Shown here: in pieces, positions 4,536 to 23,618 of the stretch | Layout of the letters: each line of letters begins with the position of its first letter | How positions within the stretch are numbered: position 1 is the stretch's first letter | NCBI GenBank assembly: GCA_944362965.1 | Contig: CALVTR010000001.1 | Location: forward strand, 90,529-154,528 | Source: an uncultured Clostridia bacterium | GTDB lineage: Bacteria > Bacillota > Clostridia > Christensenellales > UBA1242 | Direction of reading: 5' to 3' | Length of the DNA stretch: 64,000 nt | Notes under the pieces: model-generated | Databases searched by the model: none | What the model saw: only the letters and a program-made list of their open reading frames with translations | Told to the model about the DNA's origin: nothing | Program-made: the position numbers and the translations under genes

Positions 4536-6354
4536 CTACTTCTGGGTCGCCGTCGTTGTTTCCGTTGTTGCCATTGCCGTTGCTGCCATCAGTTGTTCCG
4601 TTTGTTCCGTTTGGATTAGCTGATTGATACATCTTAGAAACAATGCCGTTTGAAACATTTGTAAGCTCGTCAATAGCTTTCTTTACAGTGTCAATGTCAT
4701 CGCTAGCCATATCGGTCTTAGCTTTTTCAATGGCATCTTGAAGCTTTTTCTTGTCATCTTCTTGAAGCTTATCACCATTTTCTTTTATCATCTTTTCAAG
4801 ACCATAGACGAGGTTGTCTGCTTGGTTCTTTGTTTCAACAAGTTCCTTACGCTTCTTATCTTCTTCAGCGTGAGCTTCAGCTTCTTTGATAGCGTTTTGA
4901 ATATCTTCTTCCTTAAGGTTTGAAGATGCTGTGATTGTGATATTTTGTTCCTTATTTGTTCCAAGATCCTTTGCAGAAACTTTAACTATACCGTTTGCAT
5001 CAATATCAAAGGTAACTTCGATTTGTGGAACGCCTCTTGGTGCTGGTGGAATATCTGTAAGTTGGAATCTTCCAAGAGTTTTGTTTTGATTTGCAAATTC
5101 TCTTTCACCTTGAAGAACGTGGATATCTACGGCTGGTTGGTTATCAACTGCAGTTGAGAATACTTGAGATTTTCTTGTAGGTATTGTTGTGTTTCTTTCA
5201 ATAAGTTTTGTAAACACGCCGCCAAGAGTTTCAATGCCAAGTGAAAGTGGAGTTACATCAAGAAGAAGAACATCTTTAACTTCTCCGCCAAGAACACCTG
5301 CTTGAATTGCAGCACCAATAGCAACGCATTCATCAGGGTTGATGCCCTTGTATGGATCTTTGCCGATAAATTCTTTAACAGCTTCTTGAACAGCAGGAAT
5401 ACGTGTTGAACCACCAACTAAGATAACTTTATCAATTTGATTCTTGTCAAGTTTAGCGTCAGCAAGAGCTCTTACTGTGCAGTCGATTGTTTCTTTAACA
5501 AGGTCTTCAGTAAGTTGGTCAAACTTAGCACGAGTAAGTTCATATTCCATATGTTTAGGACCTGTTGCGTCAGCAGAAATGAATGGAAGTGATATTGTTG
5601 TCTTTGGAGTTGCTGAAAGGTCTATCTTAGCCTTTTCTGCAGCTTCCTTGAGTCTTTGCATAGCAAGTTTATCAGTTGAAAGGTCTATATTGTTTGTCTT
5701 TTTGAACTCTTCAACAAGAAGGTCAATAATTCTATTATCAAAGTCATCGCCACCAAGACGAGTGTTGCCATTTGTTGAAAGAACTTCAAACACACCGTCA
5801 CCTATTTCAAGAATAGATACATCGAATGTTCCACCGCCCAGGTCGTAAACTAAAATCTTTTGATTTGCGTTTTCACCTTTGTCAAGACCATAAGCAAGAG
5901 CGGCTGCAGTAGGCTCGTTGATGATACGAAGAACATCAAGTCCTGCAATCTTACCAGCGTCTTTTGTTGCTTGACGTTGTGAGTCGTTAAAGTATGCAGG
6001 CACTGTGATAACAGCCTGAGTAACAGGTCCACCAAGATAGCTTTCTGCATCAGCCTTCAATTTTGAAAGTATCATAGCAGAGATTTCTTGTGGTGTGTAT
6101 TCTTTGCCGTTAAGAGTAACCTTATAGTTTGTTCCCATTTCACGTTTAATTGATTGAACTGTGTTTTCAGCATTTACTATCGCTTGACGCTTAGCAACTT
6201 TGCCGACAAGTCTTTCTCCTTCCTTTGTGTAAGCTACAACTGAAGGCGTTGTTCTATCTCCTTCAGCATTTGCTATAACGGTTGGTTTTCCACCTTCCAT
6301 AACAGCTACACATGAGTTTGTTGTTCCTAAGTCTATTCCAATAATTTTTCCCAT
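4513..6354 (-). CDS. dnaK: molecular chaperone DnaK (Hsp70)
   Basis: [17 protein letters not shown] and [11 protein letters not shown] motifs, full length at 613 aa. Confidence 0.98.
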
Positions 6355-8475: not shown

Positions 8476-10395
8476 TTATACAATCGCAGTCCAATCTCGT
8501 TTATAATAAGTAGAACTTCCTAAATACTCTAAAGCATTCACAGGAATTGACGAAGCTTGAACAGTTGTTGAAGCGTAACCATTGCCTGACACCCTCCAAT
8601 TACATGTTGTATTTAGTGTTATCGTTTCAAGCCCTGTTACACTTTGGAAAGCATAGTAGCCTATAAATGTAACGCTTTCTGGGATTACTAGAGAAGTTAC
8701 AGCAAATCCACAATAATAAAAGGCAAGTCTACCTATACCTGTCACATTTGAAGATAGTTCTATCGTGATATTATCAAGCCCTGCGAAAGCACCAATTTCA
8801 ATATACGTGATTATACTATAAAGATAGCTTCCTTCGGTTATTGTTGTATTATCTGTTGCACGTATTAAAGCCATATCTTCAAGTCTAATTAAGCAGTTCA
8901 GTTCATTACCATCACTATCTCGACTTGTAAAGTATTGATTTTCAGGGTCTACATATATAGTTTTGATATTTTGGCACCCTGAAAATGCATATTCACTAGT
9001 AATATCATTAACATTTTTCCCTATATGGATGTTGCTAATAGATATGTTATTATAGTATTTATCATGACTATCTTCTTCAAGATATGATCTAAATAAATTT
9101 GGTATAGTTTCAACACTATCACCAAAAATGAAATTTGTTATAGTAGAGCCACTAAAAGTAGCAATGGTTGTTCCATCATACAAATAATTAAGACTCGCAT
9201 TTTTTGCATTATAATAAATTGTGTTTACACTTAAATCACTAAAAGCCTTGTGACCTATCCTTTCTACATTTGCACCTATAGTCAATTCTTCAAGATTGTC
9301 GCAAGCACAGAAAGCATATCCATCTATATCTGTCACGCTATCTGGAATTGTTATATTTGTTAAACTACTGCAATAATAGAAAGCATAATTACCTATACTT
9401 GTCACACTGTCTGGAATTACTATACTTGTTAAACTATCGCAACCAGAGAAAGCACGATCTCCTATACTTGTCACACTAAAAGTATAAGGTGATACTTCTG
9501 AGTTATAGGTTTCTGTTGGTATTTTTAATCCAATCACACTTGTATCACAGCCTGTAACACTTGCTGTGCCATCTGTGCCATCTTCGTTATAAGAATATGT
9601 TAAATAATTATCTGGCTCTTCAAATATTGCATAATAGGTTGCGGCAGAAGTATCGTCATATGTAAATTCATAATCAAAACTTGTTGATACAAGCTCTCCT
9701 GTTTCACTACCTGCTCTCCAACCTAAGAAAGCTGCTCCGTCAACGTCTGTAAAGTTGGCTGAAAGTGCAACTTGCTGCCCTATTTCTACTACTCCACCAC
9801 CTGTTGCTGTGCCTAGTGTTTCATTAGTCGATATCGCTGTCACTGATAGTGCTTCTTTTATTGTGATAACTATTTCTCCTAAATCTATGCTGTCAGAGTT
9901 TGGTGCCATGATTGTCAGCTCAAGTGTGCCGTCTGCTTGCGTAGTTGCAGGGTCAAATTCTTTAAAATCGTCACCATCTGAATCGGTTAAGTCATTCACA
10001 CCAATAATTCCGCTATGCCTTTCTGACACGCCGTCATTTGTAAGGGAGCTCAAGTCTACGTCCGCTATTTGCCAATAACTATCCGTTGCATTGATTATAT
10101 CAAAATACAAGGTAAAAGAGCCGTGACCATTCTCTTCTGTGTTTAAAGACGTTAAATCCATATTAAAGTTTCCGTTTATGTAACCCGGTGTAAAACTATC
10201 AACAACTATCTCTTCTCCGCCCGCTTCTTGATACCTGACTTCTTTAACATACAAGCTCTTGTCTGGAACTACAAAACTTAAACTTCCTTGCATGCTTATC
10301 TGTTGCTGCGTCGCTGCATATACCCCAAGTATCAATACACCAAGCATAAGCATAAATAACGAAATACATGATATTAGTTTTAATTTTAATGACAT
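8476..10395 (-). CDS. secreted/surface BspA-type leucine-rich-repeat protein (locus 1)
   Basis: The likely start is the MSLKLKL Met at 10395, preceded by AAGGAGAG; the 26 codons upstream run through the leader and are rejected. N-terminal K-rich and hydrophobic signal. The C-terminal half has ~23-aa repeats (SLTSIVIPDSVTSIGNYAFYYC). Confidence 0.85.
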   Translation of the reverse strand: MSLKLKLISCISLFMLMLGVLILGVYAATQQQISMQGSLSFVVPDKSLYVKEVRYQEAGGEEIVVDSFTPGYINGNFNMDLTSLNTEENGHGSFTLYFDIINATDSYWQIADVDLSSLTNDGVSERHSGIIGVNDLTDSDGDDFKEFDPATTQADGTLELTIMAPNSDSIDLGEIVITIKEALSVTAISTNETLGTATGGGVVEIGQQVALSANFTDVDGAAFLGWRAGSETGELVSTSFDYEFTYDDTSAATYYAIFEEPDNYLTYSYNEDGTDGTASVTGCDTSVIGLKIPTETYNSEVSPYTFSVTSIGDRAFSGCDSLTSIVIPDSVTSIGNYAFYYCSSLTNITIPDSVTDIDGYAFCACDNLEELTIGANVERIGHKAFSDLSVNTIYYNAKNASLNYLYDGTTIATFSGSTITNFIFGDSVETIPNLFRSYLEEDSHDKYYNNISISNIHIGKNVNDITSEYAFSGCQNIKTIYVDPENQYFTSRDSDGNELNCLIRLEDMALIRATDNTTITEGSYLYSIITYIEIGAFAGLDNITIELSSNVTGIGRLAFYYCGFAVTSLVIPESVTFIGYYAFQSVTGLETITLNTTCNWRVSGNGYASTTVQASSIPVNALEYLGSSTYYKRDWTAIV

Positions 10396-10435
10396 AACAC
10401 ACTCTCCTTTTTTTGCGAGCAAGCTTCGCCTAAGC

Positions 10436-10539
10436 GAGAAGGCATAAAGGCTGATAAGCCTTTCAGAAGGCAAAAGCTTTTGCCTTGTTGTGCATTTTGG
10501 AAAAATGCACGTGCCTTCTCACACTCGCGGCGAAGCCGC
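10436..10539 (-). promoter_or_regulatory. structured 5' leader of locus 1 (four-way junction plus GC hairpin)
   Basis: Outer stem GAGAAGGCA/TGCCTTCTC (10436-10444 / 10512-10520) encloses three hairpins at 10446-10463, 10467-10486 and 10490-10510. A GCGGC-GAA-GCCGC hairpin follows at 10527-10539. Confidence 0.55.
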
Positions 10540-10581: not shown

Positions 10582-10609
10582 AGTATACCCCCCCCGCAAC
10601 CCACGTCAA
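10582..10609 (-). promoter_or_regulatory. promoter P1 with a G8 tract in the spacer
   Basis: Minus strand reads TTGACG (10604-10609), TGGGTTGC, G8 (10588-10595), then TATACT (10582-10587), giving a 16-nt spacer. An A/T-rich UP-like region lies upstream. Confidence 0.65.
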
Positions 10610-10707
10610 GCAAATTTAACAAATTTTTTAAATTTTTTTGAAAAATTTTGTGCCTTAGGCACTTTTTATCGTGTGACTTGTCTATAATGCCGAGTTTATC
10701 TGTTCCA

Positions 10708-10826
10708 AGAGAGCGGTGATAAAGTTTATTTTTGAAACAACCTAATCTGACAATCGTCAAACATTTGGTTTGCGGACAGTGATGCAAACTAAGTTTGCCG
10801 GATAGTCGTCGAACATTTGGTTCGGT
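10708..10826 (-). repeat. copy of the hairpin-repeat family, inverted relative to the 21.4-21.8 kb array
   Basis: 10774-10821 matches the reverse complement of 21494-21541 at about 45/48 nt. Contains two AAAC/GAAC-CAAAT-GTTT/GTTC-GACG hairpin units. Confidence 0.7.
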
Positions 10827-10874
10827 GGCTTAGCCACTTTTTATCGACAAGTGTATCTATAACAAAGCATTTTT

Positions 10875-10933: not shown

Positions 10934-11704
10934 TTACACTAAAAACTCTTTGATGATTTTTAGGGCGTTCTTTTCAAGGCGGGAAACTTGGGCTTGGCTT
11001 ATGCCTATCTCTTCACTGACTTCGGTTTGCGTCTTGCCAATGTAATAGCGCATAAGCAAAATTTCCTTCTCTTTTTCTGGCAACACTTTGATTGCGTCCT
11101 TGATTGATATGTTTTCATAAAGATGCTCATCAGTGTTCTTCGTGTCAGCTATCTGGTCAAGCAGTTCTATAGTTTCAGTTCCGTCACTGTATATAGGGTC
11201 GCTGAGAGACACTGTATCGCTTATAGCGTCAAGTGCAAAGGTGACAGTCTTGAGCGGAACGTCAATCTCTTTTGCAATTTCTTCTAGCGTAGGCTCTTCA
11301 ACCGATTTTTTCATCAATCTTTCCTTAGCCTGCAATGCCTTATAAGCAATATCACGCATAGAACGAGAGACACGCACTGAATTGTTGTCACGAAGATAGC
11401 GTTTAATCTCACCTATAATCATAGGCACGGCATAGGTTGAAAACTTGACGTTCAAGTTTTCATCAAAATTATCGATAGCCTTCATAAGCCCAACGCAGCC
11501 AACTTGAAACATATCGTCAGCCTTTTCGCCTTTGCTGCCAAACCTATGAACAACAGACAGCACCAGTCTTAAATTTGCAACTATAAAGTAGTCGCGAGCT
11601 TTTTCATCACCCGCCTTAATCTTTTTTATAAACTCAAGCATATCTTCGTTTGTAAGTTTTGGCAATTTGTTTGTGTCAACCCCTGAAATACTGACTTTAG
11701 ACAT
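10934..11704 (-). CDS. sigG: sporulation sigma factor SigG
   Basis: ISGVDTNKLP, NLRLVLSVVHRF, KFSTYAVPMIIGEIKRYLRDN and VRVSRSMRDIAYKALQ closely match SigG. It follows sigE as in Bacilli and Clostridia. The start is taken at MSKVSISG after AAAGGGAG. Confidence 0.9.
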   Translation of the reverse strand: MSKVSISGVDTNKLPKLTNEDMLEFIKKIKAGDEKARDYFIVANLRLVLSVVHRFGSKGEKADDMFQVGCVGLMKAIDNFDENLNVKFSTYAVPMIIGEIKRYLRDNNSVRVSRSMRDIAYKALQAKERLMKKSVEEPTLEEIAKEIDVPLKTVTFALDAISDTVSLSDPIYSDGTETIELLDQIADTKNTDEHLYENISIKDAIKVLPEKEKEILLMRYYIGKTQTEVSEEIGISQAQVSRLEKNALKIIKEFLV

Positions 11705-19841: not shown

Positions 19842-19979
19842 ATAAGAGTATATGCCAAGACAAAAAAGAATGATAAAAATAAATAATTTTTAAAACAATC
19901 ACCATTCACTAACAAAAAATCCCATGTCTAAACATGAGATTTTGTTAGCTTTTATTTTGTAGTTTTAATAATCATATTT

Positions 19980-21196
19980 TTATTCAACAATAGCCCGCCA
20001 ATATCTATTGTAATAAGTATCTGTTAAATAAGTCAATGCATTTGTTTGAACTTCTGAAGCCGTTGACGTTGCTATAATTGATGAATCTGAGAAAGAACTG
20101 CTACTTGCTATTTCCCAGTTATATGGCGTATTGAATGTTATTGCTGTGAGTCTACCGCAACCATAGAAAGCTTCCCTACCTATACTTGTCACACTGTCTG
20201 GGATTGTTATACTTGTTAAACTACTGCAACCTCGGAAAGCACCTTCAAGTATACTTGTCACTCCTTCTGGGATTGTTATACTTGTTAAACTAGAGCAATT
20301 TTGGAAAGTAAAACTACCTATACTTGTCACTCCTTCTGGAATTACTATACTTGTTAAACTAGAGCAATTTTGGAAAGTAAAACTACCTATACTTGTCACT
20401 CCTTCTGGAATTACTATACTTGTTAAACTATCGCAACCAGAGAAAGCACGATCACACTAAATTCGTAAGGTGAACGAGAAGTTCTATATATTGTTGACGG
20501 GGTTACTAATTCTCCTGTTGCACTTGTATTACAATCTGATACTCTTGCTGTGCCTGGTGAAGTTGTATAACTATATTTTAAATTACTATTTGCTGTTTCA
20601 AATATTGCATAATAGGTTGTTGGTGAATTCTCTGTGAAGGTGAAATTATAGTCTGTAAGAGTTGATACAAGCTCTAGTATAGGAGATCGTGCTTTCTCTG
20701 GTTGCGATAGTTTAACAAGTATAGTAATTCCAGAAGGAGTGACAAGTATAGGGTCAAATTCTTTAAAGCCGTCTTCATCTGCGTCGGTTAGGTCATTCAC
20801 GCCAATTATCCCGCCATGTCTTTCTGACACACCATCATTTGCAAGAGCTCCTAAATCTACACTTTCTATTGACCACAGAATATCCGTTGCATTGATTATA
20901 TCAAAATACAAGATAAAAGAACCGTGACCATTCTCTTCTGTCTCTAAAGACGTTAAGTCCATATTAAAGTTTCCATTTATGTAACCCGGTGTGAAGCTAT
21001 CAACAACAATCTCTTCACCACCCGCTTCTTGATACCTGACTTCTTTAACAAACAAGCTTCTATCAGGCACGACAAAGCTTAAATTGCCTTGTATGCTTAT
21101 ATGCTGTTGCGTCGCTGCATATACCCCAAGTATCAACGCCCCTAGCATAAGCATAAATAATGAAATTGTGGATATCAATTTTACTTTTAATGACAT
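19980..21196 (-). pseudogene. rearranged BspA-type LRR surface protein paralog (locus 2)
   Basis: The N-terminal 150 aa are near-identical to locus 1. After KEFDP, about 85 codons are replaced by an antisense LRR unit. A 13-nt deletion at the FSV/DRAFSG junction causes a frameshift and stop at 20423. The LRR C-terminus continues in ORF 19980-20399. Confidence 0.8.
20386..20752. repeat. perfect 68-bp inverted repeat flanking a 231-bp segment
   Basis: 20386-20453 is the exact reverse complement of 20685-20752, checked base by base. Both arms encode one LRR unit (DRAFSGCDSLTSIVIPEGVTSIG). Confidence 0.9.
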
Positions 21197-21354
21197 AAAT
21201 CTCTCCTTAACGCAAAAATTTTATTTTTATTTTGTTTAATCACTGCTGTTTTTATGCAAATTTCGACCTTACTTGCATATCTTAGCCACATTTTAGCATT
21301 TTTGCAATCCCTTTGTCTCAAGGGTGACGGCACGATGCCGTCAAATCACGACCC

Positions 21355-21780
21355 GAATTTTCGAACCATATGTTCGACGATTGTTCGATTAAGAGTGTCT
21401 AAGTTTTAAACTACATCTCCGCTCTCTAAGCCTAACGCTTGGCGGTTATACGGCAGAGTGAGAATAAGAGATAAGCTATGTCTCCGCTCTTAAGCCAAAT
21501 GTTTGACGGCTGTCCGGCAAACTTAGTTTGCATCACTGTCCGATAAAGTGAATATAAGAAACAAACTTTATCTCCGCTCTCTAAGCCTAACGCTTGGCGA
21601 CTATCCGGCAGAGTAAGTTGAAAAAATAAACTTTGTCGCCGCTCTCAAACCTTACGTTTGACGATCGTCCGCGAGCCAGATGCTCGGCGTTTGTCCGGCA
21701 GAGTGACATAAAAGAATAGTCTTTATTCCCGCTCTCTTTAACCATATGTTCGACGGCTGTCTATGTGAGCGAGCTTTGTC
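21355..21780 (+). repeat. tandem array with alternating 65/90-bp units
   Basis: Unit heads T(C/T)(T/G/C)CCGCTCT at 21416, 21481, 21571, 21636 and 21726, giving spacings of 65, 90, 65 and 90. Each unit carries a 4-5 bp hairpin with a 5-nt loop followed by G(G/A)CG. Confidence 0.8.
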
Positions 21781-21788
21781 GCAGATAT

Positions 21789-21874
21789 GAGAAGGCATAA
21801 AGGCTGACAAGCCTTTTGGAAGGCAAAAAGTTTTTGCCTTCTTGTGCATTTTGAAAAAATGCACATGCCTTCTC
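21789..21874 (-). promoter_or_regulatory. locus 2 copy of the four-way-junction leader
   Basis: About 90% identical to 10436-10520, with the same outer stem GAGAAGGCA/TGCCTTCTC and three hairpins. Here about 590 bp of repeats separate it from the gene. Confidence 0.55.
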
Positions 21875-21928
21875 ACACTCGCGGCGAAGCCGCTCGCGAT
21901 GGACATAGTATGTCCATCTTTTGCTATT

Positions 21929-21956
21929 AGTATACCCCCCCCGCAACCCTTGTCAA
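21929..21956 (-). promoter_or_regulatory. promoter P2 with a G8 tract in the spacer
   Basis: Minus strand reads TTGACA (21951-21956), AGGGTTGC, G8 (21935-21942), then TATACT (21929-21934), giving a 16-nt spacer. Confidence 0.6.
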
Positions 21957-22112
21957 CAAATTTTAAGCATTTTTTTAAAAAATTTTTATTTTTTTTGTGG
22001 ATTTGTCTTATATTGATAAATTTTCCCTATCTCCACTTTATATGAATATCTTTTCATATAACTATAATTCCATTGTATACTCCCTTTCTTTTTCATTACA
22101 GCTTATAATTTG

Positions 22113-22230
22113 TTTCTCCGCCGCAGGCAAGCGAATGAGGGATTTTTATTAAAAAATCACAATAGGCAAAATATGTTTTGCCTATAAAAACTCTAGTGAG
22201 TTTTTCATTCGCTTGCCTGCGGCGGAGAAA
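22113..22230. other. nested palindrome D: 26-bp outer stem plus three hairpins
   Basis: TTTCTCCGCCGCAGGCAAGCGAATGA (22113-22138) pairs perfectly with 22205-22230. Inner hairpins lie at 22141-22158, 22162-22185 and 22187-22204. Confidence 0.7.
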
Positions 22231-22336
22231 ACTCAAAACCAGTTCTGTTCTATAAATTCCATCCTTATTATCTCTTCACCTTTCACTCTTCATTTTTCAC
22301 TCCCGCGTCAGCGGTATGTCGCCAAGCGTCCGGCTT

Positions 22337-22365
22337 AAAAAAAAGGTAGCCAATTCTGGCTACCC
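22337..22365 (-). terminator. ftsW terminator
   Basis: Minus strand reads GGTAGCC-loop-GGCTACC followed by T8. Confidence 0.75.
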
Positions 22366-22451
22366 ATAAATTAAATTTAAAGTTAAATTTATTTTTTATC
22401 ATAATTTTCACTAAAAAATGCAAAAATATGTGGTTATTTTGTCATTTTTAT

Positions 22452-23618
22452 TTAATTTTGCTTTGATTTTGAGAATTTCAGCTTTTTAAATTTTATCACT
22501 TTCACATCTCCGCCCTTTGACTGACGCAAGACGTTAAGACAAATTCCAATGCCTGCCATAAACACCATAACAGACGTCCCACCACTTGAAATAAACGGAA
22601 GTGGCAAGCCTGTTGGCGGGATTGAGCCTGTGACTACCGCAATATTAAGCAGTGTTTGAACGGCGATTATAAATGCAACACCGCTGACCAGCATTGAGCC
22701 AAACCTATCTTTTGCGTTTAGTGCAATTTTGATAAGCCTGTAGACAAGCACAAAGAACACAATCATCAAAATTGTCACACCAACAAAACCAATCTCTTCG
22801 CCGATGATTGACAAAATAAAGTCTGATTCAGCAAAAGGAAGAAAAAGGTATTTTTGACGAGAGTTGAAAAGTCCAACACCAAACCACCCGCCGTCACCAA
22901 GCGAATAGAGCGACTGAATAAGCTGAAAGCCTTCTCCTTGCGGTGACGCCCATGGGTCTATGAAGGCAAGCAGTCTTCTTAGGCGGTATGGCTCAAGCAC
23001 CACAAGCAGCGGAACGCAAGCAGCGGCAGGAATTGAGAACATAAGGGTGTGTTTTTTGCTCATTCCACCGATAATCAGCATAAAAAGAGTTACAAACGCG
23101 ATACACATAGTCACGCTCATTGACGGCTCTAGCATGATAAGCACGCACATCAGCCCGCCAACTATCAAAACAGACAGAAGCCCTTTAAAGGTTTTGACCT
23201 TGTCATGATTGTCGGACATATAGGCGGCAGTGAAAATCACTAGTGCAAACTTTGCTATCTCTGATGGCTGAATTGAAAACCCAAGTATTGACACCCAGCG
23301 TTTTGCACCATAACTTTCCATTCCAAGTCCAGGCACAAAGACAAGCACTAAAAGCACAAAAGTTCCGCCAACAATCCACCATTTATATTTTTTTAGCAGA
23401 TGATAGTCAAAAAAGGTGAAAAATATCATTGCGATAACGCCAAGCACCACACCAAAAATTTGTTTTATAAGAAAGAAATATTTGTTGCCATAGTGATAAT
23501 TTGCACTATAATATGACGCGCTATAAACCATTAAGCACCCAAAAATCACAAGTGCCATAACAAGTAGCGCAATTACTATAATATCAGTTCTGCATTTCGA
23601 TTTTTTCAAAGTTATCAA
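22452..23618 (-). CDS. ftsW: SEDS-family peptidoglycan polymerase FtsW/SpoVE
   Basis: Polytopic protein with LPFISSGGTS and ESDFI motifs. The start is uncertain: I favour the TTG at 23618, 7 nt after AAGGAG; the ORF extends to 23681, overlapping murD. Confidence 0.85.
   Translation of the reverse strand: MITLKKSKCRTDIIVIALLVMALVIFGCLMVYSASYYSANYHYGNKYFFLIKQIFGVVLGVIAMIFFTFFDYHLLKKYKWWIVGGTFVLLVLVFVPGLGMESYGAKRWVSILGFSIQPSEIAKFALVIFTAAYMSDNHDKVKTFKGLLSVLIVGGLMCVLIMLEPSMSVTMCIAFVTLFMLIIGGMSKKHTLMFSIPAAACVPLLVVLEPYRLRRLLAFIDPWASPQGEGFQLIQSLYSLGDGGWFGVGLFNSRQKYLFLPFAESDFILSIIGEEIGFVGVTILMIVFFVLVYRLIKIALNAKDRFGSMLVSGVAFIIAVQTLLNIAVVTGSIPPTGLPLPFISSGGTSVMVFMAGIGICLNVLRQSKGGDVKVIKFKKLKFSKSKQN

Follow-up and report, generated by a model that had tools for sequence, protein, structure and literature searches.

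The stretch of DNA analyzed here (hereafter, the window) comprises 64,000 nucleotides (nt) from an uncultured Clostridia bacterium, in a region of Clostridia type with low GC content (35%) and nearly all genes on the − strand. A cell-division cluster in this region presents the arrangement mraY, murD and ftsW, followed by a gap of 1255 nt and then by a 257-aa open reading frame (ORF), a 139-aa ORF encoding leucine-rich repeats (LRR), murA and ftsQ. The gap contains an array of tandem repeats (21362–21766, + strand) that is antisense to all neighboring genes of the window, and the gene downstream of the array is a fragment of a secreted LRR protein. Knowledge of small interspersed repeats is good for a few cultured model bacteria and very scant for uncultured gut Clostridia. 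The array examined here belongs to a previously uncatalogued, clade-restricted family of short, hairpin-bearing intergenic repeats of uncultured Clostridia. New repeat families are common; the anchoring of this one to gene ends and the three-way covariation within its sub-unit are unusual, and both are testable.

The array is composed of five full units and one partial unit, of 64, 64, 90, 64, 90 and 29 nt (U1, 21362–21425; U2, 21427–21490; U3, 21491–21580; U4, 21582–21645; U5, 21646–21735; and the truncated U6, 21738–21766; all on the + strand), with 1- or 2-nt junctions in between. It holds eight 26-nt hairpin sub-units, starting at 21362, 21427, 21491, 21517, 21582, 21646, 21672 and 21738, with two sub-units in each of the 90-nt units U3 and U5. 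A first-pass annotation of this DNA had described an alternating 65/90 spacing and a 155-bp super-repeat, and a repeat search of the window recovers both: a 63-nt repeat occurs four times at spacings of 90/65/90, TCTCCGC heads are spaced 65/90/65, and a 155-nt super-repeat is detected at 76% identity; the 65/90 spacing follows from the unit lengths. The extra covarying hairpin that had been assigned to the longer units turns out to be a second 26-nt sub-unit, of a variant type (GCAAA-CTTAG-TTTGC-ATC) in one case and of the canonical type (CGAGC...) in the other, and so does not represent one hairpin in two covarying forms. The phase of the unit also has to be revised, since comparison with copies from other genomes indicates that the natural unit opens at the hairpin and closes at CCGCTCT. 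The strict unit pattern has three matches in the window, against 0.00 expected from 100 shuffles. Tandem Repeats Finder, with a minimum score down to 30, did not report the array, perhaps because unit lengths alternate and the units have diverged. The array also shows signs of decay, with T.G in three stems where relatives have C-G, and with the truncation of U6.

A covariance model of the sub-unit, run unfiltered over the window, identifies 12 sub-units, instead of the nine copies counted initially, at only three intergenic sites: eight at 21362–21761 (+), three at 10747–10824 (−) and one, degenerate, at 22318–22337 (−). The second site is a single 115-nt unit of the same family (10710–10824, −), in which sub-units at 10824–10799, 10798–10773 and 10772–10747 are followed by the linker and the head ATCACCGCTCT, and the degenerate sub-unit, TAAGCCGGACGCTTGGCGACATACCG (22312–22337, −), lies directly after the T-run of the ftsW terminator. 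The stems listed in the first-pass annotation (CGAAC/GTTCG, TAAGC/GCTTG, TAAGC/GTTTG, CAAAC/GTTTG and CGAGC/GCTCG), with their C-N-N-A-Y loops and the RCG that follows, were all found by a motif scan of both strands. Beyond the window, where comparison loci and contigs are labeled with L-numbers, a strict pattern scan of one genome per species yielded 19 loci in seven metagenome-assembled genomes (MAGs) of uncultured Clostridia, plus three high-GC chance matches. A stem-agnostic pattern applied to metagenomes yielded 10 further true loci, in four assemblies, among 45 matches, most of which were chance matches in high-GC soil contigs. The covariance model finds 123 sub-units in these 29 loci (197 kb), and those of the window and the 29 loci together fall into 44 arrays of 1–9 sub-units. 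The family was not found in viral contigs or in phage and plasmid BLAST searches, the one match on a viral contig (63% GC) being judged to be due to chance. Rfam at gathering score returned only a tRNA over the whole window; chance-level matches alone were obtained for 21150–22500 (E ≥ 0.0008, plant and animal miRNA models on the 118-nt hairpin), the arrays of 17 loci produced nothing, and relaxing the cutoff to E ≤ 10 added nothing relevant. Exact-protein look-ups returned no record for FtsW (with its long GTG start) or for the 257-aa ORF, and only a 1.6-kb contig for MurA. Metagenome assemblies of these organisms are interrupted by the arrays, and in one MAG several contigs (L003, L011, L012, L015) stop inside an array; contigs of the window's own species break in neighboring palindromic elements.

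Across the family, the unit consists of a 15-nt hairpin, an 11-nt tail (RCG-NYTG-TCCG), an AT-rich linker of ~28 nt and a head, (A)TCTCCGCTCT. The basic element is 64 nt long, which is not a multiple of 3, and has defined ends (5'-C[A/G/C]A[A/G]CC ... CCGCTCT(C)-3') that are not inverted repeats of each other; its length ranges from 62 to 65 nt across 59 distinct copies. The hairpin has a 5-bp stem with mixed A-T and G-C pairs and a 5-nt C-N-N-A-Y loop, the tail is conserved and single-stranded, and the head TCTCCGCTCT is invariant; in the 59-unit alignment, invariant columns comprise C17, G18, T21, T23, C25, G26 and CCGCTCT. Hairpin and tail make up the 26-nt sub-unit, present in one to three copies per unit. 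The variant type, (C/G)CAAA-CTTAG-TTTG(G/C)-ATC-AYTG-TCCG, is mostly the last or sole sub-unit, with an exception in the 10.7-kb unit, where it lies between two canonical sub-units. All arrays open directly with a hairpin, with no CCGCTCT ahead, and most close at ...CCGCTCT(C), so that the 5' neighbor of the hairpin is CTCT within arrays and unrelated sequence at array starts. With its 64-nt unit, its 26-nt sub-unit, a covariance model and unusually clear hairpin covariation, the family offers a testable definition.

The evidence for the hairpin comes from compensatory change. In the 59-unit alignment, which was preselected for at least 4 of 5 pairs, pair 2/14 occurs as A-U (38), G-C (13) and C-G (8) and pair 4/12 as A-U (30) and G-C (29), with zero mismatches and zero G.U at either, and pairs 1/15, 3/13 and 5/11 are nearly invariant. 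None of 500 shuffles reaches the observed covariation score, and pairing collapses when the partner is slid by 1–3 columns. Furthermore, a scan anchored on the tail, and thus independent of the stem, recovers the same six stem types (CAAGC, CAAAC, CGAAC, CCAAC, CGAGC and CCAGC), all of them Watson-Crick. What is conserved in the hairpin is hence base pairing, not sequence. The first-pass annotation had let its reading depend on further copies and on statistical support for covariation; copies are found in other genomes, and the covariation survives full alignment. Coupling extends to nt 16, the first nucleotide after the hairpin: of 130 sub-units, 72 have (A,T,A) at nt 4/12/16, 49 have (G,C,G) and 9 have another triplet, and nt 12 is therefore complementary to nt 4 and nt 16 alike in 121 of 130. 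The coupling holds in three different backgrounds of pair 2/14 and so does not merely reflect two old sub-lineages. RNAalifold detects no conserved helix beyond the 5-bp hairpin and lends no support to a further hairpin in the AT-rich linker, which was discarded. The asymmetry of G.U versus A.C was also considered as an indicator of the folding strand and proved uninformative, wobble-type defects being split 10 versus 10 between strand senses.

The 64-nt period can also be read as a 36-nt "repeat" and a 28-nt "spacer", and direct tandem repeats with a hairpin in each would befit a CRISPR-like array or the repeats of a type III (ToxI-like) antitoxin. This reading is already refuted by the unit alignment, however, in which the presumed spacers are mutually homologous and recur within and between arrays while the presumed repeats vary and covary. 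The arrays are, moreover, short (1–9 sub-units) and number in the dozens at unrelated sites, the 25 most recurrent of the Pfam families in 80 neighboring ORFs, with 63 less recurrent families outside that set, include no cas or toxin family, and the gene downstream in the window encodes an LRR fragment. A CRISPR or antitoxin origin is accordingly extremely improbable.

Tandem duplication has operated in this family at three nested scales: the 26-nt sub-unit, the 64-nt unit and, in the window, the 155-nt block of two units. Identical adjacent units are found within the arrays of L002, L018 and L049, and unit order differs between L006 and L052. The array orthologous to that of the window has four units in L037, some of them hybrid between window units, and about three in L024; such hybrid units and differing unit counts fit a process of unequal recombination. 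Where unit number varies, the arrays could be used as strain markers.

The placement of the arrays was assessed relative to long ORFs and tRNAs, the 5' side of each array being defined by its own direction. The feature on that side points the same way as the array in 25 of 31 cases and the opposite way in six (binomial p = 0.0009, an approximate value because orthologous loci are partly non-independent), and the 3' neighbor is convergent in 19 of 30 arrays. The first hairpin starts 0 nt from a TAA stop codon in L003, L005, L009, L012, L025 and L053, and 1–3 nt past the stop codon in L006 and L023, while in L014 and L006/L052 the hairpin loop itself supplies the stop codon. In L066 the array begins directly after the CCA of a tRNA-Leu; this is the sole verified tRNA junction, L013 and L017 having been rejected as such (no ARAGORN prediction, and an Rfam tRNA match of 17 bits only). 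Elsewhere, arrays lie directly after the T-run of a terminator (at 22337 in the window, and in L019, L024 and L063). Array neighbors are ordinary housekeeping genes and BspA-type LRR proteins. In L006 and L021, facing arrays are located between convergent genes, each behind its own gene, a layout indicating that array orientation tracks transcription and not the direction of replication. The two opposite arrays of L006 meet between the convergent genes in a perfect palindromic junction, CCGCTCTCAAACCAAATGTTTGAGAGCGG (5491–5524), sharing one hairpin.

Defined ends and strand-specific insertion raise the question of whether the units are non-autonomous derivatives of an HUH/Y1 single-strand or rolling-circle element (IS200/IS605, RAYT, IS91/Helitron-like), the enzyme of which would read the subterminal hairpin and single-stranded motifs, with tandems arising from re-initiation or from insertion at an existing end. 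Such an origin would agree with the absence of terminal inverted repeats and of target-site duplications, neither of which was seen at the 44 array boundaries, and with a small subterminal hairpin in which pairing is conserved without G.U intermediates at the two covarying pairs. The even split of wobble-type defects, devoid of strand asymmetry, is what a hairpin acting at the DNA level would produce, and the coupling between stem and flanking nucleotide recalls the pairing of guide and cleavage site in IS608. No such enzyme came to light, however: tblastn with IS200 and IS608 TnpA queries gave nothing below E = 1 in the window and the 29 loci (~260 kb), no transposase family recurs among the 80 neighboring ORFs, and the window and loci examined contain no long element bounded by unit ends. 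In addition, no common target sequence was seen in the left flanks of the arrays, and the orientation of the latter follows the local gene and not a single replication direction (L006, L021). We therefore regard this origin as unlikely. Orphan CCGCTCT heads, considered as possible marks of an autonomous partner element, were dismissed as chance 8-mers or pieces of other modules.

The same placement data bear on a second alternative, in which the units are functional RNA modules, transcribed in + orientation at the ends of transcription units, forming arrays of binding sites for an RNA-binding factor. These could be nut-like, with the head CGCUCU(C/U/A)A resembling boxA and the hairpin resembling boxB, and would modulate termination, read-through or 3'-end processing. 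The co-orientation of 25 of 31 arrays with the upstream gene and the array starts 0 nt away from stop codons and the CCA of a tRNA-Leu speak for such a role, as does the location of the L013 and L017 units between a tRNA-like 3' end and a terminator, and so inside the transcript. In the family, the head and the opening bases of the hairpin together read CGCUCUCA, and U3 of the window reads CGCUCUUA, which is the lambda boxA (PMC2724277). The boxA of rrn operons is UGCUCUUUA and the boxB of nutR folds into a 5-bp stem capped by a 5-nt loop (PMC2724277), and a CGCUCU-containing motif beside a 15-nt hairpin with a 5-bp stem and a 5-nt loop is likewise found here, as a resemblance only. The boxA likeness, however, spans only 6–8 nt, no spacer separates the two parts, and the loop is C-N-N-A-Y and not GNRA-like; the sites form arrays at many loci, and their placement at gene ends argues against nut membership. 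Several arrays, moreover, follow an intrinsic terminator (22337, L019, L024, L063), where little transcription is expected, and the window array is antisense to every neighboring gene. The lack of G.U at covarying positions, of any RNAalifold structure beyond the 5-bp hairpin and of Rfam matches also counts against RNA modules, which we hold to be quite improbable. A function as a sponge for CsrA, with two GGA per unit on the reverse strand, was rejected because the family orientation puts the opposite strand into transcripts.

Several known repeat families share traits with the units described here. The BOX elements of pneumococci are modular, carry tandem boxB modules, show enrichment between convergent genes and differ in length from strain to strain (PMC3049150). 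Both BOX (boxA-boxB(n)-boxC) and the present family are modular non-coding repeats with a variable tandem inner module and predicted stem-loops; in both, sites downstream of genes and between convergent genes are over-represented, and the length variation of BOX by slippage or unequal crossover has its counterpart in the differing copy number of the 26-nt and 64-nt elements between orthologous arrays. There is, however, no evident sequence relationship and no terminal inverted repeat of the boxA/boxC type, the whole unit is tandemly repeated and not the inner module alone, and the arrays show a strong tendency to share the direction of the upstream gene, from the end of which they lie at zero distance. 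In terms of placement, mycobacterial interspersed repetitive units (MIRUs) offer another parallel, inserting at start codons with a coupled ORF (PMC12548453). MIRUs, too, form dispersed loci where repeats tens of bases long follow one another in direct tandem, in line with the flanking genes and precisely against codons at gene boundaries, and the arrays described here match that placement (25 of 31 co-oriented; 0 nt from the stop codon in at least six loci). The short ORFs of MIRUs, on the other hand, couple translation in operons; the present units have a length (64 nt) not divisible by 3, abut stop codons, tRNA ends and terminators, often between convergent genes, and contain a covarying hairpin. 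The closest analogue is the pneumococcal BOX in behavior and the MIRU in placement.

The first-pass annotation had likened the array to repetitive extragenic palindromes (REPs) and bacterial interspersed mosaic elements (BIMEs). That comparison stands insofar as this is a dispersed hairpin-repeat family present in two orientations, in high copy number and extragenic, with compensatory changes and mosaic clusters with linker motifs downstream of genes. Strict membership does not stand: the stem is 5 bp long and contains AT pairs, whereas REPs are long, GC-rich imperfect palindromes of about 20–40 nt; the 5' GTAG is missing; and direct tandems replace the alternating or inverted order of REPINs and BIMEs, with head-to-head arrays in L006 only. 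REPs usually flank a gene for a REP-associated tyrosine transposase (RAYT) in the genome; the tblastn search with IS200/IS608 TnpA queries revealed none below E = 1 in ~260 kb. MITEs (miniature inverted-repeat transposable elements) differ in that the family has neither terminal inverted repeats nor target-site duplication. The family thus shares traits with REP/BIME, BOX, MITE, MIRU and CRISPR but lacks the defining features of each.

Within that frame, we consider it reasonably probable that the window array results from an interspersed repeat, modular, non-coding and lineage-specific, that has been amplified locally and is of REP/BIME-, BOX- or MIRU-like kind, and that it is a local passenger with no role as a dedicated regulator. 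The unit grows by nested tandem duplication and would be reshuffled by unequal recombination or slippage. Given that pairing and not sequence is conserved, we infer that a factor encoded by the host or by the element recognizes the hairpin as a stem-loop in single-stranded form, in RNA or single-stranded DNA (ssDNA). Arrays are normally oriented with the upstream transcription unit, often from its exact end. The window copy is atypical in this respect, lying antisense and upstream of a degenerate LRR paralogue, between a distal promoter-like site with a candidate invertible segment and a proximal promoter.

Several observations weigh against this model of passenger amplification. The sequences examined yielded neither a mobilizing enzyme nor a pair of empty and filled sites that defines a clean junction, and for this reason mobility is deduced solely from the many unrelated insertion sites. 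Among contigs of the same species (100% FtsW identity), no variation in unit number is seen, the gap array being identical in L070 and carrying 8 differences in L071; an array that is invariant within the species argues that turnover is not fast. The folding of the whole array is unremarkable against shuffles (z = −1.7 for the + strand and −0.5 for the − strand), and the double complementarity of nt 12 goes beyond a plain hairpin model. REPs are known to act as barriers to exonucleases, and a 5-bp hairpin is too weak for such a barrier. Lastly, insertion tolerance downstream of genes accounts for neither the zero-distance anchoring nor the strand bias, both of which hint at a strand-specific function or targeting.

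These are also the features that known families leave unexplained, namely exact gene-end placement in the orientation of the gene and a third nucleotide covarying with a stem pair. They can be accommodated by a more speculative proposal, to which we assign a slim chance: the units might be strand-specific modules anchored to 3' ends (stop codons, tRNA CCA ends and terminator T-runs), whether by targeting or by selection, with a boxA-like CGCUCU and a boxB-like hairpin, in which a dedicated factor that binds RNA or ssDNA would read nt 4/12/16 as a base triple or as a switch with two states. If so, they would constitute a new class of end-of-gene signal in Clostridia, and not passenger DNA.

For the window array itself, the passenger interpretation draws on its local context. 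The ORFs following the gap form a broken BspA-type LRR paralogue (19980–21196, −), made up of the 257-aa ORF (20423–21196) and the out-of-frame 139-aa LRR_5 ORF (19980–20399). The former is 73% identical to the N-terminus of a 665-aa LRR protein (8476–10473), and this identity, together with the out-of-frame LRR fragment, makes a broken paralogue a fair reading; the two ORFs look like a frameshifted and shortened version of the 665-aa protein. Both LRR genes show a leucine-rich periodicity of 69 nt (23 aa), reported by Tandem Repeats Finder at 20176–20438 and 9309–9478. In the intact paralogue, which has no array, an equivalent promoter-like site and leader run straight into the ribosome-binding site, while in the broken copy 584 nt intervene, comprising the array (in reverse orientation to the gene), a second repeat module (module Z) and a promoter-like site close to the gene. 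The separation of promoter P2 and its leader from the gene, put at ~590 bp in the first-pass annotation, is thus confirmed, at 584 nt, by the intact copy at 10.4 kb, which also upholds the notion of an insertion at this point, as does a relative with an intact LRR gene and no array at the same site. P2 (21929–21956, −) reads TTGACA-16-TATACT, with 11/12 matches, and its spacer carries a G8 run beside the −10 hexamer (C8 on the + strand, 21935–21942). The proximal site, P1 (21290–21319, −), lies between the array and the gene and reads GAGACA-18-TAAAAT, with a TG before the second hexamer.

The contents of the gap between ftsW and murA (compared over 19842–22451 of the window) differ among relatives. 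At 86% FtsW identity (L080–L082), the gap spans 189 nt and contains no unit. At 92%, L077 and L078 harbor an intact 1221-aa BspA-LRR gene with plain AT-rich sequence upstream and no array, and L083 and L084 have a gap with two other genes and arrays of this family. The gap is hence a variable island, and the array is no conserved part of LRR gene control. Because the intact paralogue and relatives such as L077 and L080 lack an array at this position, and because its stems have decayed and U6 is truncated, the window array is most likely a decaying passenger, lengthening the distance from P2 to the gene by 584 bp, and not a dedicated regulator. Annotating it as a riboswitch or leader for the LRR gene is not warranted.

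A candidate invertible segment (21789–21874) is located between P2 and the array, with 10-bp inverted repeats (GAGAAGGCAT, 21789–21798, and ATGCCTTCTC, 21865–21874) enclosing a 66-bp interior with three perfect hairpins. It thus sits between P2 and the LRR gene, containing neither, and its counterpart in the paralogue is found at 10436–10520. In L037 (1754–1837) the 66-bp segment is inverted relative to the window, with both flanks collinear, and a terminator-like hairpin within it (21818–21842, + strand) faces one way only. In the cwpV switch of Clostridioides difficile, a short segment bounded by inverted repeats separates the promoter of a surface-protein gene from its ORF and includes neither (PMC2784873). 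The 66-bp segment, and not the array, resembles this system in its placement, its two orientations at orthologous loci and its one-way terminator-like hairpin; it differs in length (66 versus 195 bp), and its orientations come from separate orthologous loci. The segment is probably an invertible leader switch of the cwpV type. Promoters of the P2 type carry a G tract, GGGGGGGG, before TATACT, which is 8 nt long in both window copies (21935–21942 and 10588–10595) and 7, 9 and 8 nt long in L010, L008 and L083, respectively. A change in homopolymer length would alter the spacing between −35 and −10 hexamers, in a classic arrangement for phase variation by slipped-strand mispairing. The 66-bp segment and the G8 tract of P2 are likely better candidates than the array as regulators of this surface-protein family.

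Other modules adjoin the arrays. Module Z, CCTTTGTCTCAAGGGTGACGGCAcgaTGCCGTCAAATCACGACCCGAATTTT (21310–21361, +), is a nested hairpin followed by a T-run, ahead of the first hairpin of the window array. It is kept, as GGGTGACGGCAcgaTGCCGTCAAATCACGACCCGAATTTTT, before the first hairpin of arrays upstream of LRR-type genes, and is seen elsewhere in L022 (~5965–6010), L024 (~5200–5254) and L037 (~1430–1481). The 10.7-kb unit is flanked by two copies of another module, module X, the first reading GTGCCTTAGGCAC-TTTTTATCG-N10-GTCTATAAT (10640–10705, +) and the second, GTGGCTTAGCCAC-TTTTTATCG-...-TATCTATAAC (10825–10870, +), abutting the hairpin end of the unit. Module X (GTGCCTTAGGCAC-TTTTTATCG-N10-GTCTATAAY) also appears at array hairpin ends and between arrays in L018, L022, L023, L024 and L048, and on the strand opposite to the array it presents a terminator-like hairpin and a T-run, followed by a TATAAT-like box. 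In L013 (3019–3354), a unit of ~130 nt is repeated in tandem, opening with a CCCTGAAAATC..GATTTTTAGGG hairpin and closing with a tRNA-like T-arm and CACCA. A terminator comes after one copy and an array after the next; this unit may be a small RNA or a further repeat family. Hairpins of the form CCCTTGAAA...TTTCAAGGG recur near arrays, in L017 (7598–7650), L002, L008, L012, L021 and L024. Lastly, the 118-nt element at 22113–22230 has perfect 26-nt inverted arms, TTTCTCCGCCGCAGGCAAGCGAATGA, around 66 nt of three hairpins, an architecture that it shares with the segment at 21773–21890; contigs of the same species (L073, L075 and L076) break within this element, and a homologue in L039 (~11290–11394) carries the interior in the opposite order.

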